In this document: positions 29,395 to 34,531 of the stretch, one piece after another
How positions within the stretch are numbered: position 1 is the stretch's first letter
How the letters are laid out: the number at the start of each line of letters is the position of its first letter
Assembly (NCBI GenBank): GCA_964357635.1
Contig: CAYHLZ010000004.1
Coordinates: forward strand, 1-41,060
DNA from: an uncultured Candidatus Saccharibacteria bacterium
Lineage (GTDB): Bacteria; Patescibacteriota; Minisyncoccia; Phycocordibacterales; Zambryskibacteraceae
DNA: 41,060 nt
Direction: 5' to 3'
Notes under the pieces: generated by a model
Seen by the model: the letters and a program-made list of their open reading frames with translations, nothing else
Told to the model about the DNA's origin: nothing
Databases searched by the model: none
Translations under genes and position numbers: made by a program

Positions 29395-31473
29395 ATGAAT
29401 AAACAAATACTAAGGAACATTGTTTTTGTTGGGCTTTTTCTCGTGCCCTTTGTTCCTTTTTTGGTTTCTTCCTCTTTTTTCTTTCCATTTATCACCACCA
29501 AGGCCTTTGTCTTTAGGATTATTGTAGAAGTAGTCTTTGCTTCATGGTTACTTCTAGCTTTTTTTGATGCAAACTACCGTCCAAAACGGTCCATTGTTCT
29601 TTATGCGATTTTTGGATTTCTTGCTGTTATAGGATTGGCAGATCTTTTTGGCTCTGCTCCAGTAAAAAGTTTTTGGTCAAATTTTGAACGCATGGAGGGG
29701 TTTGTTACCCTTCTTCACTTGGGGATGTTTTTCCTAGTCATCTCCTCGGTTTTTAAAGAGATTGACTGGAAGAGATGGTGGAACACTTCACTTGTAGCTT
29801 CATTTTTGATGATTTTGTATTGTCTTTTACAAGTTATAGGATTATTGACCATAAACCAAGGCGGAGTACGTGTAGATGGTACTTTTGGTAACGCAATCTA
29901 TCTGGCTGTTTACATGCTCTTTCACATTTTTATTGCCCTTTTCTTTATGTGGCGGTCGTGGAAGAACGCTACTCTTAGGTGGATGTATGGTTTGCTTATC
30001 GTGGCCCAGGCATCAATTCTTTATCTCACAGCTACTCGTGGCGCTATTCTCGGTCTCCTTGGAGGATTGCTCGTTGTGGCAGTTCTTAATATTAGAAACA
30101 AAGAAGACGGCTTTGTAAGAAAAACCAGCGTTTCCACCTTAATAGGTTTAGTAATTTTGGTCGGAGGATTTGTCTCTATTAAAGATGCAGAATTTATCAA
30201 AAACAGCCCTGTTCTTTCAAGATTTTCATCTTTAACTATAGAGGAAGTTAAGACCCAAGGCAGATACTTCGTCTGGCCAATGGCATTTGAGGGGTTTAAA
30301 GAAAGACCAATTCTTGGTTGGGGGCAAGAAAATTTCAATTATGTTTTTCAGAAATACTATAGTCCAGAAATGTTTAGGCTGGAACCATGGTTTGACCGAG
30401 CGCACAACATTTTCCTTGACTGGGCAGTTTCTGGAGGAATATTTGGCCTACTCTCTTATCTTTCTCTCTACTTTGCACTTTTATTTTCAATCTGGAGGCG
30501 TTCCACAGGACCTAACGCTGAAAAAGACCAAAACTTTTCTCACACCGAGAAGTCTATCCTAACAGGCCTTGTTGCCGCATACTTCTTCCATAATTTTTTC
30601 GTCTTTGACCATCTTATTAGCTACGTCCTATTCTTTTCACTTCTCGGATATGTGCACTATAGACATGCCGGAAAAACATTAATGATTGATAGCAAGCTTA
30701 CTGAAACTCAGGTTAGAAATATTATTTTACCACCAGTTTTTCTGTTCTTGGTGCTTTCTCTATATTTCGTCAATGCGAGACCCATTATGACGAATATCTT
30801 ACTAATAGAGGCGCTCAAATCTGTTCAAACACCAGGTGAAATTTTGTCAGCTGCCCAATACTTTAAAAAGGCATACAGCAAATCTCGTCTTGGTAGACCA
30901 GAAGTGTCTGAGCAGATTGCTCAAAATGCACCCACGATTCTAACGAGCGATATACCTATGGAAGAAAAGAATTTATTCTTTGATTTTGCAAAAAATGCTG
31001 TACTTGAACAGAATGAAAAATTGAATGGTGATGCGCGCGCCCAACTACTTCTAGGATCCTTTCTTTCTTCTACAGGCTTGTTGGACGAAGCTCTTACCAA
31101 CCTTTTGCGCGCCAAAGAATTGATCCCAGGCAAGCAACAAGTCTATTTTGAAATTGGGTCTATTTATATAAACAAAAATGAAATAGCCCAAGCTCTCAAA
31201 GTATTCAGAGAAGCCTATGAGTTGGCACCAGAATACTTAGAATCCAAGGTAATTTATTTGATTGGGTCAATCTATGCTGGTGACAGGGCGCTCGAGAATG
31301 AGCTTCTTTCTAAACTTACAGACAGCGAGCTTGTCTTTGATGACAGGGTTATAAATGCATACTATGCGGTAGGCAGAAAAGATATTGTTCTGGCGCTACT
31401 TAACGAACGCATTAAGCTTGATCCAGCAAATGCTACTACTTACGAAAATCTAATAAAATCACTTGCAAATTAG
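29395..31473 (+). CDS. O-antigen ligase/O-oligosaccharyltransferase family protein with C-terminal TPR-like repeats
   Basis: Multi-TM; GTFGNAIYLA, TATRGAILG, RPILGWGQENF and DRAHNIFLD, followed by a helical TPR-like C-terminus. Confidence 0.85.
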   Translation: MNKQILRNIVFVGLFLVPFVPFLVSSSFFFPFITTKAFVFRIIVEVVFASWLLLAFFDANYRPKRSIVLYAIFGFLAVIGLADLFGSAPVKSFWSNFERMEGFVTLLHLGMFFLVISSVFKEIDWKRWWNTSLVASFLMILYCLLQVIGLLTINQGGVRVDGTFGNAIYLAVYMLFHIFIALFFMWRSWKNATLRWMYGLLIVAQASILYLTATRGAILGLLGGLLVVAVLNIRNKEDGFVRKTSVSTLIGLVILVGGFVSIKDAEFIKNSPVLSRFSSLTIEEVKTQGRYFVWPMAFEGFKERPILGWGQENFNYVFQKYYSPEMFRLEPWFDRAHNIFLDWAVSGGIFGLLSYLSLYFALLFSIWRRSTGPNAEKDQNFSHTEKSILTGLVAAYFFHNFFVFDHLISYVLFFSLLGYVHYRHAGKTLMIDSKLTETQVRNIILPPVFLFLVLSLYFVNARPIMTNILLIEALKSVQTPGEILSAAQYFKKAYSKSRLGRPEVSEQIAQNAPTILTSDIPMEEKNLFFDFAKNAVLEQNEKLNGDARAQLLLGSFLSSTGLLDEALTNLLRAKELIPGKQQVYFEIGSIYINKNEIAQALKVFREAYELAPEYLESKVIYLIGSIYAGDRALENELLSKLTDSELVFDDRVINAYYAVGRKDIVLALLNERIKLDPANATTYENLIKSLAN

Positions 31474-31490
31474 AGCCAATGTGCTATACT
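31463..31490 (+). promoter_or_regulatory. Sigma70 promoter driving a non-coding transcript
   Basis: TTGCAA (31463-31468), 16-nt spacer, TGc-TATACT (31485-31490). No plausible ORF lies before the next terminator. Confidence 0.7.
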
Positions 31491-31495
31491 AAGAG

Positions 31496-31570
31496 GGTGA
31501 GTGCTAGTAACTAGCACCAAACGAACGAATGTCTGCGCAAGTCCCGCCTCACGGCGGGATTTACGTTTTT
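31496..31570 (+). ncRNA. Candidate small RNA 1 (~75 nt)
   Basis: Promoter, 5' hairpin GTGCTAG-TAA-CTAGCAC, single-stranded CAAACGAACGAATGTCT, terminator-like AAGTCCCGCC-TCAC-GGCGGGATTT, then ACGTTTTT. Confidence 0.55.
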
Positions 31571-31617
31571 AAACCCTGGTGAATAGATTTAAAATCTACC
31601 ATCCATTATAATTCTTA

Positions 31618-31710
31618 GAGTTATTCTTTCTGTGCGTGGAGGGTGGCCGCACTCACAAAGATATTCGTTTGGAGCTAGCCCCACCCTCCGCGCATGGAAA
31701 GAATTTTTTT
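31618..31710 (+). ncRNA. Candidate small RNA 2 (long hairpin, ~90 nt)
   Basis: 24-bp stem 31623-31646/31681-31704 whose three non-Watson-Crick pairs are all G.U on the + strand. It has a 34-nt apical region, a T-run after the stem and TATAAT at 31607-31612. Confidence 0.6.
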
Positions 31711-31721
31711 GAAAAAAATAG

Positions 31722-31730
31722 TTATCCACA
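31722..31730 (+). promoter_or_regulatory. Perfect DnaA box
   Basis: TTATCCACA, upstream of the basic-peptide promoter. Confidence 0.45.
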
Positions 31731-31868
31731 CTTTTTTATTTTCTCTATTGTATGTCTAGATTATAAGTACGATAATTAACTTAAGTCACAGGCAAAAAAT
31801 ATTTTCAAAAATATTTTTTGCGGAAGACGTTAACAATAATTTCCTGACGGAAACATCAGGACAACACA

Positions 31869-31946
31869 ATGGCTAAGAAAAGAAAGAAGGCAAAGAGAAA
31901 GCCAGCTTCCAAGAAGAGAAAAGCTTCCAAGAAGAGACGACGCTAG
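31869..31946 (+). CDS. 25-aa Lys/Arg-rich peptide (not in ORF track)
   Basis: MAKKRKKAKRKPASKKRKASKKRRR, 17 of 25 residues K/R. Candidate promoter TTGTAT-17-GATAAT (31748-31776), A-rich leader and a terminator 11 nt after the stop. Confidence 0.8.
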   Translation: MAKKRKKAKRKPASKKRKASKKRRR

Positions 31947-31957
31947 TTCTCAACCTT

Positions 31958-31991
31958 AAGAAAAAACGCCCCCGCAAGGGCGTTTTTTCTT
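31958..31991. terminator. Bidirectional intrinsic terminator
   Basis: AAGAAAAAACGCCC-CCGCAA-GGGCGTTTTTTCTT. Confidence 0.8.
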
Positions 31992-32020
31992 GCTCTCAAA
32001 CGTGCTAAAATAAGCCCCTT

Positions 32021-34531
32021 ATGGCTTTTTTAAAGAATCTTTTGGGAACTCCGGAAGAGAAATTGCTCAAATCTTGGAAACCTCTCGTAGAGCGCATTAA
32101 TGCGCTCGAACCTTCGTTTGAAAAACTATCTCAAGAAGAATTGAAATCAAAGACATCTGAATTTAAAGAGCGTATCAATAAAAAAAATAATTCAGATGAA
32201 GAAATAAAAGGGGCGCTTGATGAAATTCTACCAGAAGCCTTTGCCGTTGTCAGAGAAGCAGCAAAACGTACCCTAAAACAGAGACACTTTGATGTTCAGC
32301 TTCTTGGCGGTATTGCTCTCTACCAAGGTGGGATTGCTGAAATGAAGACCGGTGAAGGAAAAACCTTGGTGGCCACACTGTCAGCGTATCTTATGGCACT
32401 TACAGGCAAAGGGGTGCACGTGGTAACCGTTAACGATCACCTCTCTCGCCGTGACACTGTCTGGATGGGGCAGATTTACTCCTATCTCGGGCTTTCTGTT
32501 GGGGTTATAAATCATTCGCAGTCCTTTATCTACGACGAGTCTCATGCAGAAAAAGACAAGGAGCGGGATGCTACAGGCTCTTTCCACGTGGTTTATGAGT
32601 TTTTGAGACCCGTGACCAAGAAAGAAGCCTACAGAGCCGACATTACTTATGGCACCAATAACGAATTCGGCTTTGACTACTTGCGTGACAATCTTCTTTA
32701 CAGGAAAGAGGATCTGTCTCAAAGAGATTATCATTACGCTATTGTTGACGAAATAGACTCTATTCTTATTGATGAAGCGCGTACTCCTCTCATTATCTCC
32801 GGTAACACGGGGGCTGCGGGTGAGTTGTATGAGAAATTTTCTAAAATTGCCAGAGGATTTGAAGAAAATAAGGACTTTACCATAGACGAGAAGTTGCGCG
32901 CAGTTTCTTTGACGGATGAAGGTATTAGTAAGGCAGAGAAAGCTTTGGGGATTGAAAACATTTATGCCGAAGGTGGAGTTAAATATGTGCATCACTTAGA
33001 AACCGCTGTTCGAGCTAAAGCTCTATATCACAAAGATAAAGAGTATGTGGTGAAGGATAACGAAGTGGTGATTGTGGATGCTTTCACAGGCAGACTTCAA
33101 CCTGGTCGTCGTTGGTCGGAGGGGCTACATCAAGCCATAGAAGCCAAGGAAGGTGTGGGTATAAAGGAAGAGAGTCGCACATACGCCTCTATTACTTTCC
33201 AAAACTATTTTCGTATGTACAAAAGGCTTTCCGGTATGACCGGCACCGCCATTACCTCCAAAGAAGAGTTTTATAAAGTTTATGGTTTAGAAACTTTTGT
33301 TATACCAACTCATAAACCAGTAGCCCGCAAAGATCACGGAGATTTAATCTTCCAGAGTCATGCCGGCAAAATGAAGGCTGTTGCTAAAAAGGTAAGCGAG
33401 CTAAACAAGAAAGGTCAACCCGTGCTTATCGGCACCGTCTCCATTGAACACAACGAACTTCTTTCCGAATATCTTAAGAGTGAAGGGATAAAACACGAAA
33501 TCTTGAATGCCAAAAACCACGAACGAGAAAGTGAGATTATCGCCCAAGCAGGCAAGCGTGGCGCAGTAACACTTGCCACAAACATGGCAGGCCGAGGCAT
33601 AGACATCAAGCTTGGTGGCAATCCCTCCACAGAAGATGTCTACGAAGGGATAAAGACTCTTGGCGGGCTCTTTGTTCTAGGCACCGAGAGACATGATGCT
33701 AGGCGTATAGATAATCAATTACGCGGTCGTTCTGGTAGGCAAGGAGATCCGGGTGAGACCCAGTTTTTTGTCTCACTTGAAGATTCTTTGATGCGTATAT
33801 TTGCCGTGGACACAATCAAAAAAATGATGGGACGATTTGATATTCCTGAAGACGAGCCCATAGAGAACAAACTTATAACCAACTCTCTTGAGAAGGCTCA
33901 AGAAAAGATAGAAGGATTTAACTTTGACGCTCGCAAGCATGTTTTAGAGTTTGATGATGTACTCAATTTTCAAAGAAGTATCATTTATGCTCGTCGTCGC
34001 AGTGTTGTGGTCGGGGGTCAAAAAGAGATAAGGGATTATTTGCTAGAGATAGCAGAACACTTAGACTCTGACGCGAAGATAAAAATGAATGAAAAAATCT
34101 CAAAACTACCTCTGGAAACTTCAGAAGTTTTGGAGGTATTACGAAGAATAATTCTTCAAACGATAGACTTGTTTTGGGTGGATCACTTGGAGATGATGGA
34201 ATACTTGCGGGGAAGTGTGAACTTGCGCGCTTACGGTCAGCGTGACCCACTTATTGAGTATAAGAAAGACGGTCTTCGATTTTTCAGGGAAATGGAAGGC
34301 TCAATTGCTAAGCAAATATCTGATTTTGTTATCGCCCTTAATCTGGAGGCATTAATGACCGCTGTGGAAAAATCTCAAATTGCCCCAAGCCCATTTACTT
34401 CAGCAATACCAGTGGGTACAGAGTTGTCTGGGCAAGGTCAAGTTCCAACCAACACTGGACCAAGGGTTGGCAGAAATGATCTCTGCCCTTGTGGTAGCGG
34501 AAAAAAGTATAAAAAGTGCCATGGCAAATAA
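32021..34531 (+). CDS. secA: Preprotein translocase ATPase SecA
   Basis: MKTGEGKT, DEIDSILIDEARTPLIIS, ATNMAGRG, RRIDNQLRGRSGRQGDPG and C-terminal GRNDLCPCGSGKKYKKCHG. Confidence 0.98.
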   Translation: MAFLKNLLGTPEEKLLKSWKPLVERINALEPSFEKLSQEELKSKTSEFKERINKKNNSDEEIKGALDEILPEAFAVVREAAKRTLKQRHFDVQLLGGIALYQGGIAEMKTGEGKTLVATLSAYLMALTGKGVHVVTVNDHLSRRDTVWMGQIYSYLGLSVGVINHSQSFIYDESHAEKDKERDATGSFHVVYEFLRPVTKKEAYRADITYGTNNEFGFDYLRDNLLYRKEDLSQRDYHYAIVDEIDSILIDEARTPLIISGNTGAAGELYEKFSKIARGFEENKDFTIDEKLRAVSLTDEGISKAEKALGIENIYAEGGVKYVHHLETAVRAKALYHKDKEYVVKDNEVVIVDAFTGRLQPGRRWSEGLHQAIEAKEGVGIKEESRTYASITFQNYFRMYKRLSGMTGTAITSKEEFYKVYGLETFVIPTHKPVARKDHGDLIFQSHAGKMKAVAKKVSELNKKGQPVLIGTVSIEHNELLSEYLKSEGIKHEILNAKNHERESEIIAQAGKRGAVTLATNMAGRGIDIKLGGNPSTEDVYEGIKTLGGLFVLGTERHDARRIDNQLRGRSGRQGDPGETQFFVSLEDSLMRIFAVDTIKKMMGRFDIPEDEPIENKLITNSLEKAQEKIEGFNFDARKHVLEFDDVLNFQRSIIYARRRSVVVGGQKEIRDYLLEIAEHLDSDAKIKMNEKISKLPLETSEVLEVLRRIILQTIDLFWVDHLEMMEYLRGSVNLRAYGQRDPLIEYKKDGLRFFREMEGSIAKQISDFVIALNLEALMTAVEKSQIAPSPFTSAIPVGTELSGQGQVPTNTGPRVGRNDLCPCGSGKKYKKCHGK

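Follow-up and report, generated by a model that had tools for sequence, protein, structure and literature searches.

The antisense RNA pairs that govern plasmid copy number and killer genes, such as CopA/CopT, RNAI/RNAII and Sok/hok, nucleate between a loop and an open partner and proceed to long duplexes that are cut by RNase III. Here we describe two candidate small RNA genes, RNA1 and RNA2, located in a 548-nt intergenic gap on the + strand of a 41,060-nt stretch of DNA (the window), which is contig CAYHLZ010000004.1 (C4) of GenBank assembly GCA_964357635.1. The genome, from an uncultured Candidatus Saccharibacteria bacterium placed by GTDB in the order Phycocordibacterales, amounts to 523 kb in 13 contigs and has an estimated completeness of 92.5%. 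As in CopA/CopT-type pairs, the hairpin loop of RNA2 meets a single-stranded segment of RNA1, the pairing can spread to ~20 bp by opening a hairpin, RNase III is encoded in the genome, and the two RNAs probably come from one sequence read in both senses. In contrast to those pairs, RNA1 and RNA2 are chromosomal and single copy, lie side by side or unlinked rather than overlapping, and are conserved throughout the order. Neither is an mRNA or a replication primer, they pair through two non-colinear helices, and the pairing segment co-evolves in trans.

The original prediction, made from the letters of the window, had offered two alternatives: an undescribed pair of antisense small RNAs or a two-piece RNA on the one hand, and a single ~200-nt two-state switch or attenuator on the other. 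Our analysis upheld the first and spoke against the second. From sequence comparison across the order, we propose with a probability of roughly 55% that RNA1 and RNA2 are small RNAs, each transcribed from its own gene, and that they work on each other in trans as a dedicated RNA/anti-RNA heterodimer.

Other described systems share parts of this design. The type II CRISPR RNA:trans-activating CRISPR RNA (crRNA:tracrRNA) may be compared in layout: there too, small RNAs are joined by a ~20-bp duplex with RNase III available and, as in tracrRNA, the pairing segment of RNA1 is followed by a conserved hairpin and terminator. Unlike crRNA:tracrRNA, the locus has no repeat array and no cas gene among its recurrent neighbours, and the pairing segment occurs once in the genome, within the loop of a 24-bp RNA2 hairpin. 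U4/U6 small nuclear RNA and two-piece transfer-messenger RNA (tmRNA) likewise have two intermolecular helices that flank an intramolecular hairpin, and evolve by compensatory change. The helices of RNA1 and RNA2 instead run 5' with 5' (pseudoknot topology) and form no three-way junction; the system is dispensable within the genus and has no known protein partner, and an ordinary one-piece tmRNA is encoded elsewhere in the genome. RNA2 also resembles 6S RNA (RF00013), of which none was detected in the genome: it is long, mostly double-stranded and has a large open region, and it is single copy, dispensable and has a strong promoter of its own. It differs in having no Rfam match at E up to 10, in being half the size of 6S and in having as its open region a terminal loop whose pairing partner is the product of a second gene. 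RNA1/RNA2 works most like the loop-to-linker antisense pairs and the bipartite RNAs, and is a member of no family tested.

Pairing between RNA1 and RNA2

The features of both RNAs are collected in Table 1. All of the sequence features named in the original prediction are present in the window. From 5' to 3', RNA1 consists of GUGAGUGC, a first hairpin (hairpin 1), an open linker, a 3' hairpin and a U-run. Its 5' element, GTGAGTGC (31497-31504), is complementary without mismatch to GCACTCAC (31649-31656) in RNA2, the match that had been claimed. The listing of inverted repeats agrees with the 14 of 15 complementary positions read between 31511-31525 and 31664-31678 and, past a CGAA bulge, TGTCT (31530-31534) and AGATA (31659-31663) do pair, with one G.U. 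The RNA2 stem (31623-31646 with 31681-31704; 24 nt) is 88% complementary and its three exceptions are G-T, which correspond to the three + strand G.U pairs that had been predicted. A 15-nt imperfect inverted repeat is unremarkable by itself, because the same 800 bases contain 24 inverted pairs of 10-25 nt; it is raised above chance by its conservation with compensatory changes in other genomes. One proposed alternative pairing, in which GAGGGTG at 31493 replaces GAGGGTG at 31639, proved to be a peculiarity of this genome. In eight relatives of the same genus (L007-L012, L014, L015) the RNA2 stem reads GGAGAGCGG/CCGCTCTCC, and the bases before the RNA1 GTGAGTG vary freely.

Table 1. Coordinates of the two RNA genes, their pairing segments and the adjacent genes in the window.
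Feature	Position	Strand	Description
RNA1 promoter	31463-31490	+	-35 TTGCAA, 16-nt spacer, extended -10 TGcTATACT; from a consensus scan
RNA1	31497-31570	+	~75 nt; predicted ends
Helix a, RNA1 strand	31497-31504	+	GUGAGUGC; partner is 31649-31656
RNA1 hairpin 1	31501-31517	+	GUGCUAG-UAA-CUAGCAC; found in minimum-free-energy folds
Long intermolecular duplex, RNA1 strand	31511-31534	+	contains the helix b core, 31522-31534
Helix c (extension), RNA1 strand	31511-31525	+	requires bulged CGAA, 31526-31529
RNA1 3' hairpin and U-run	31536-31570	+	arms 31536-31548 and 31553-31565; terminator-like
RNA2 -10 box	31606-31611	+	TATAAT; conserved in the genus alignment
RNA2	31620-31710	+	~90 nt; 24-bp stem, 34-nt apical loop, U-run; predicted ends
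Helix a, RNA2 strand	31649-31656	+	GCACUCAC; nearly invariant throughout the order
Helix b, RNA2 strand	31659-31671	+	AGAUAUUCGUUUG; drifts jointly with the RNA1 linker
RNA2 loop, 3' segment	31671-31678	+	GGAGCUAG; UGGAG part nearly invariant; may lengthen the duplex by pairing with the 3' arm of hairpin 1 (helix c)
Upstream gene	29395-31473	+	692-aa membrane protein with a Wzy_C O-antigen-ligase domain and TPR repeats
Downstream small open reading frame	31869-31946	+	25 codons, lysine/arginine-rich, MAKKRKKAKRKPASKKRKASKKRRR
secA	32021-34531	+	3' of the lysine/arginine-rich open reading frame

We searched 60 relatives by BLAST and built covariance models for RNA1 (R1) and RNA2 (R2) for this analysis. 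The pairing was then compared in 57 distinct RNA1/RNA2 pairs. Its core, helix b, is formed by the final 12-13 nt of the RNA1 linker with the centre of the RNA2 loop. Helix b comprises 13 contiguous pairs in the window and, as an ungapped run counted from the foot of the 3' hairpin of RNA1, a median of 12 across the 57 genomes; this ungapped register search fails for two of the 57 rows (L094 and L097), whose gapped duplexes are good. Individual columns hold several pair types, for example U-A 40, A-U 13 and C-G 2 at one position. There are 33 distinct RNA1 helix b 12-mers among the 57 pairs and, of the 30 with at least two differences from the commonest, 26 form a better duplex with the RNA2 of their own genome than with that of the commonest-type genomes.

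The optimal gapped duplex of the window has an energy of -22.4 kcal/mol. Over the 57 pairs, mean duplex energies were -22.41 kcal/mol for cognate and -18.37 kcal/mol for non-cognate combinations, a result reached by 0 of 10,000 permutations. Control duplexes gave -12.9 (reverse complement of the loop) and -13.7 (shuffled loops). Close kin among the non-cognate combinations counteract the cognate effect and do not favour it. The comparison was repeated on 26 further pairs, whose loci were obtained independently via the upstream protein, and the outcome was the same (-21.63 versus -18.68; 0 of 10,000 permutations). Pairs whose genes are unlinked also retain their complementarity. Together, these results argue that the complementarity is maintained by compensatory change, as in an anti-RNA pair. 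The decay of complementarity that the original prediction had named as evidence against itself was not seen; the changes are compensatory and cognate-specific across the order.

Beyond helix b, the optimal duplex reaches at least three of the four bases of the invariant RNA2 GGAG in 49 of the 57 pairs (helix c), giving ~20 bp with a small bulge, so that the bulged duplex read in the window is a recurrent one. Helix a has a median of 9 contiguous pairs in the 57 cognate pairs and has changed in a compensatory way in L051, L052, L065 and L096 and in the unlinked pair of G121. The two helices do not follow a colinear order: each RNA1 element finds its partner on the like-numbered side of the RNA2 loop, the 5' element on the 5' side and the 3' element on the 3' side. 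The predicted topology is that of a bimolecular pseudoknot, i.e. a pseudoknot split over two molecules, and by our own geometric estimate helix a is compatible with a helix b of 12 bp.

In predicted folds, RNA1 by itself leaves its linker single-stranded, and the pairing segment of RNA2 falls within the apical loop. Of the 57 predicted RNA1 5' parts, 19 have the whole 12-base linker free and most others have it partly free, consistent with an accessible nucleation site in the linker and loop. Hairpin 1 overlaps the strands of both helix a and helix c, and therefore binding would have to remodel it. Among relatives its stem is kept, with variable length and sequence.

Compensatory changes were also found within each RNA. 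Pair counts were made on model-fitted alignments with the best match per locus (57 rows). Double changes occurred at 23 of the 24 pairs of the RNA2 stem, with 160 G.U pairs versus 39 A.C, and at 15 of the 16 modelled pairs of RNA1 (152 versus 5). The excess of G.U over A.C indicates that the RNAs are read from the + strand. Folding alone does not reveal the strand, because both strands beat shuffled sequences (z -6.9 for the + strand and -7.8 for the - strand). Compensatory pairs found by RNAalifold support both the RNA2 stem and the 3' hairpin of RNA1. The GUGAGUG, GCACUCACA and UGGAG motifs and the GGCGG/CCGCC top of the RNA2 stem are nearly invariant. In the window, the RNA1 3' hairpin, detected as terminator-like at 31539-31562, has the form of an intrinsic terminator, a G+C-rich stem with a U-run directly after it. 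This U-run is absent in some relatives (e.g. L058, L070, L087, L088), in which the hairpin may be structural.

That both strands fold equally well, and that the minus-strand reading of the RNA2 loop resembles the 5' half of RNA1, would also be expected of a locus with no RNA function: a decaying inverted duplication, a remnant of a miniature inverted-repeat transposable element (MITE) or a protein-bound DNA palindrome. This resemblance suggests that the pair was probably born by inverted duplication, with RNA1 and RNA2 probably derived from one sequence read in both senses. As an account of the present locus, a lack of RNA function is already contradicted and exceedingly improbable. The cassette is single copy in the genome and conserved over more than 100 families of the order, its mismatches are overwhelmingly G.U on the + strand and not A.C, its promoter motifs are conserved, and compensatory changes persist where the two halves are unlinked. 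A MITE was rejected on the single copy and the compensatory, cognate-specific nature of the changes.

Distribution and arrangement of the two genes

BLAST aligned both RNAs in nine genomes of the same genus, at 71-77% identity, and matched pieces of them in other families. The most conserved blocks in the genus alignment were both promoters, the RNA1 linker and the RNA2 loop. The covariance models, which score 95.5 bits (R1) and 102 bits (R2) at the window's own genes, were then applied to an order sample of 151 genomes, drawn evenly from more than 118 families. RNA1 was detected in 91 of the 151 genomes and RNA2 in 109, nearly always as one match per genome. Both RNAs were found in 85 genomes, RNA1 only in 6, RNA2 only in 24 and neither in 36. 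R1 is the weaker model, and a lower-scoring RNA1 lies beside RNA2 in three of five examined genomes that had appeared to hold RNA2 only (L097, L098 and L101, with none in L078 and L084). The cassette is conserved over more than 100 families, with matches in assemblies titled Candidatus Zambryskibacteria, Taylorbacteria, Campbellbacteria and Lloydbacteria. A sample of 151 genomes of the phylum gave four R2 matches, of which two were the genome itself and one of the same order, and the other two, outside the order, were weak. Five genomes of the same class had weak R1 and R2 matches that were never co-located. No match to the cassette was found in phage and plasmid collections.

Copy number departs from one in a few genomes. 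G082 (L048, L125) carries a second, near-identical RNA1 on another contig, G078 has two copies of each RNA, and G157 (L114) has a weak second RNA1-like match 600 nt 5' of RNA2 with its strong RNA1 on a different contig.

Within the genus, RNA2 was found in 10 of 37 genomes (8 of 22 of high quality) and in none of the other 27. The cassette-less congeners lack the ~240-nt cassette cleanly between the stop codon of the Wzy_C gene and the conserved AGTTATCCACAC block, and retain the leader, the peptide gene and secA. The RNA pair is probably accessory rather than essential.

Tandem order, RNA1 followed by RNA2, was observed in 52 of the 57 pairs, with four divergent and one convergent; in one of the divergent cases (L091), a tandem match scores equally. 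In the convergent case (L073, in G153) the 3' ends overlap by 7 nt, as if the two genes shared a bidirectional terminator. The genes are 2-4 kb apart in G037 and G113, and lie on different contigs or 50 kb apart in G157, G106, G143, G121 and G154. Each has promoter-like sequence of its own. A TTGAC/TTGCA - ~17 nt - TGCTAnnnT motif stands at a fixed distance before the RNA1 GUGAG in most of the 57 loci, and TATAAT-like hexamers cluster 6-16 nt before the start of the RNA2 model. This argues for two putative transcription units. The conserved promoter motifs, together with order-wide compensatory complementarity even between opposite strands and different contigs and the lack of a matching Rfam family, bear out the original suggestion of an undescribed antisense pair or two-piece RNA.

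The predominance of the tandem same-strand order, with gaps between model ends down to 9-20 nt in some genomes, in which co-transcription is therefore possible, could instead reflect a single ~215-nt RNA with two alternative folds, which would attenuate read-through toward the basic peptide gene and secA. The missing U-run after the RNA1 3' hairpin in some relatives would also fit such a transcript. A switch or secA attenuator is contradicted by the divergent, convergent and unlinked arrangements, in which the complementarity is kept, and by the variable downstream gene, which is secA in 25 and murB in 23 of the 57 loci; a constant same-strand linkage to a downstream gene was not observed. In addition, a conserved -10 box precedes RNA2, and the leader, peptide gene and secA are unchanged in congeners that lack the cassette. 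We therefore regard the single-transcript reading, already contradicted by the gene arrangement, as very improbable.

Known RNA families and neighbouring genes

The original prediction had recognised no signal recognition particle (SRP) RNA, tmRNA, RNase P RNA or riboswitch core, and a search with Rfam 15 (4227 models) agrees. At gathering thresholds, the whole window gave a small-subunit rRNA and one tRNA only, with nothing at the RNA pair. At E up to 10, the best matches in 31300-32100 were mir-3817 (24.6 bits against a threshold of 90) and rnk_pseudo (22.9 against 55). These are chance matches to hairpin shapes, far below threshold. The absence of a match in the region covers 6S, a hit to which would have counted against the prediction, and led us to reject SRP RNA, 6S, RNase P RNA, tmRNA and 5S rRNA as identities of the pair. 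The models RF00169, RF00013 and RF00010 (RNase P RNA) have no match anywhere in the genome, which holds its one-piece tmRNA on another contig and a 5S fragment elsewhere. A crRNA:tracrRNA was rejected, as the pairing segment is not a CRISPR repeat and has no second copy longer than 21 nt in the genome. The recurrent neighbours within 1.5 kb include no cas gene, a statement limited to these neighbours in that a genome-wide cas search was not made. TIGR-Tas guide arrays are described as box C/D-like repeat arrays adjoining Tas genes (PMC12045711). The RNA1/RNA2 locus is unlike these. The accessible parts of the literature yielded no description of conserved base-pairing small RNAs, or of such a pair, in the candidate phyla radiation, Parcubacteria or Patescibacteria.

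The RNase P RNA model RF00010 failed to match the genome even at E up to 10, and of 41 order genomes 38 carry RNase P RNA elsewhere; the gene of this genome either falls in the unassembled 7% or is highly divergent. An SRP RNA was abandoned as an identity of the pair when RF00169 and RF01854 were each found in 0 of 41 order genomes and the Ffh M domain in 0 of 41. The M domain (PF02978) was likewise found in 0 of 101 genomes of the phylum sample, a phylum-wide zero that may partly reflect the first-look filter. No match to the SRP54 GTPase domain (PF00448) was obtained in the window's genome, and five single-contig genomes gave only short matches to its N-terminal part; a motif scan of the genome's 924 open reading frames of at least 100 aa found no SRP-type GTPase. 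If real, the loss of both Ffh and FtsY would be remarkable.

A same-strand Wzy_C/TPR gene precedes the RNA pair in 46 of the 57 loci, and the recurrent neighbours within 1.5 kb are the Wzy_C/TPR protein, SecA and MurB. No gene for a partner protein is linked to the pair among them. Relatives of the upstream protein bear such titles as Candidatus Zambryskibacteria, Taylorbacteria, Campbellbacteria, Lloydbacteria, Nomurabacteria, Kaiserbacteria and Parcubacteria/Paceibacterota, which places the organism with the Parcubacteria-type members of the candidate phyla radiation. As to a type I toxin-antitoxin system, in which one RNA would carry a conserved small hydrophobic reading frame, the only reading frame across RNA2 in the window is a 47-aa GTG frame (31636-31779) that extends beyond RNA2.

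The 25-codon open reading frame 3' of the pair has a Shine-Dalgarno-like AGGA upstream and a perfect terminator downstream (31958-31991), and is preceded by a conserved 14-bp hairpin (31792-31821). Congeners with and without the RNA cassette retain similar lysine/arginine-rich frames together with the leader hairpin, and the peptide has no NCBIfam match. Between RNA2 and this frame, a perfect DnaA box, TTATCCACA (31722-31730), lies in the block AGTTATCCACAC...CTATTGTAT...GATAATTAA (31719-31780). The box and its flanking AG are kept in eight of ten aligned relatives (one base differs in two) and also in cassette-less congeners, and it may mark a DnaA-controlled promoter of the peptide/secA unit. 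A replication origin was considered and rejected, because the box stands singly, without a cluster (15 one-mismatch sites against 10.5 expected), and no turn in GC skew was found. At the other end of the window, positions 1-467 match the 3' 447 model positions of 16S rRNA and are followed by tRNA-Ile(GAT) at 969-1044. The remaining 40 kb contain no 23S rRNA, so the rRNA genes are unlinked.

Function of the pair

In the mechanism that we envisage for a dedicated RNA/anti-RNA heterodimer, the RNA1 linker would nucleate on the apical loop of RNA2, hairpin 1 would then open, and the duplex would spread to ~20 bp, with helix b acting as a zipper. The resulting duplex could be a substrate for the RNase III encoded at positions 5767-6489 of contig C3, which could also cut the 24-bp RNA2 stem. 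The sequence of helix b drifts freely with compensation, so that this helix has no conserved third partner. The near-invariant motifs are not explained by mutual pairing, and something else would therefore read them. We suggest that the GUGAGUG:CACUCAC duplex, the UGGAG and the GGCGG/CCGCC stem top may be read by a third factor, and that RNA1:RNA2 pairing may set the exposure of these motifs.

The invariant motifs, for which pairing alone does not account, also favour the main rival explanation, an obligate two-piece ribonucleoprotein RNA. There, the RNA1:RNA2 complex would itself be the working molecule, helices a and b would be assembly zippers, and the motifs would form a protein-binding core. 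Helix b evolves as a structural helix does, by free drift with compensation; the two genes are nearly always together, are jointly lost in congeners and both have consensus-like promoters. Against this, the recurrent neighbours (Wzy_C/TPR protein, SecA, MurB) include no linked gene for a partner protein, and absence of the cassette from 27 of 37 genomes of the genus would be unusual for a core ribonucleoprotein. We consider this explanation unlikely, while noting that the evidence does not separate it from an antagonist model. In its fullest and equally doubtful form, the pair would be a new bipartite ribonucleoprotein RNA of bacteria, restricted to one large order of Parcubacteria, in which two gene products, zipped into a bimolecular pseudoknot by co-evolving helices, show the invariant motifs to some protein, or to the machinery of translation or secretion, in cells without a detected SRP.

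The layout of RNA1 (5' hairpin, open seed, terminator) is classic for a trans-acting regulator, and an accessory, lineage-restricted distribution is typical of regulatory small RNAs. One of the two RNAs, RNA1 or possibly RNA2, might therefore be an ordinary regulator of several mRNAs and the other its sponge. Shared mRNA targets would be expected to fix the sequence of helix b; the seed-like strand is instead unconserved, with its 33 variants in 57 genomes tracking RNA2, which argues against a multi-target regulator with a sponge. Moreover, nothing in 31440-31760 recurs elsewhere in the genome over more than 21 nt. Neighbouring mRNAs were rejected as targets, as neither the start of the upstream Wzy_C gene (525 of 5000 permutations reached the observed value) nor the 200 nt downstream of RNA2 (2387 and 3767 of 5000) shows cognate-specific, co-evolving complementarity. 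We judge a regulator with its sponge improbable.

Several points weigh against the dedicated heterodimer itself. Both RNAs and their ends are predicted from DNA sequence, and no output, target or protein partner was found for the pair. It is dispensable in the genus, because RNA2 occurs in only 10 of the 37 genomes. Which RNA would act on which is a guess, with a slight lean toward RNA2 as an effector hairpin and RNA1 as its antagonist. The alignments behind the pair counts were fitted to our own models and hence lean toward the modelled structure, and the loci analysed are the best-scoring matches. Related genomes are not independent, so that the permutation tests are approximate. Helix a runs hardly differ between cognate (9.12) and non-cognate (8.73) combinations; near-invariance makes the two alike, and the support for this helix therefore comes from about five compensatory cases. 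By our geometric estimate, helix a probably cannot, for steric reasons, coexist with the full ~20-bp duplex. Finally, RNAcofold gives the complex only -1.3 kcal/mol beyond the monomers, a value from a program that cannot represent linker-to-loop pairing, which is why duplex energies were used.

The family would be an addition to Rfam and would improve intergenic annotation in hundreds of metagenome-assembled genomes. The host organisms have tiny genomes and mostly resist culture, and for them the pair offers a testable case, with short RNAs, defined pairing sites and dozens of natural compensatory variants. It illustrates the co-evolution of two trans-encoded RNAs with one another and not with mRNA targets. 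Should the complex of RNA1 and RNA2 prove to be the functional species, it would count as a new bacterial bipartite RNA.

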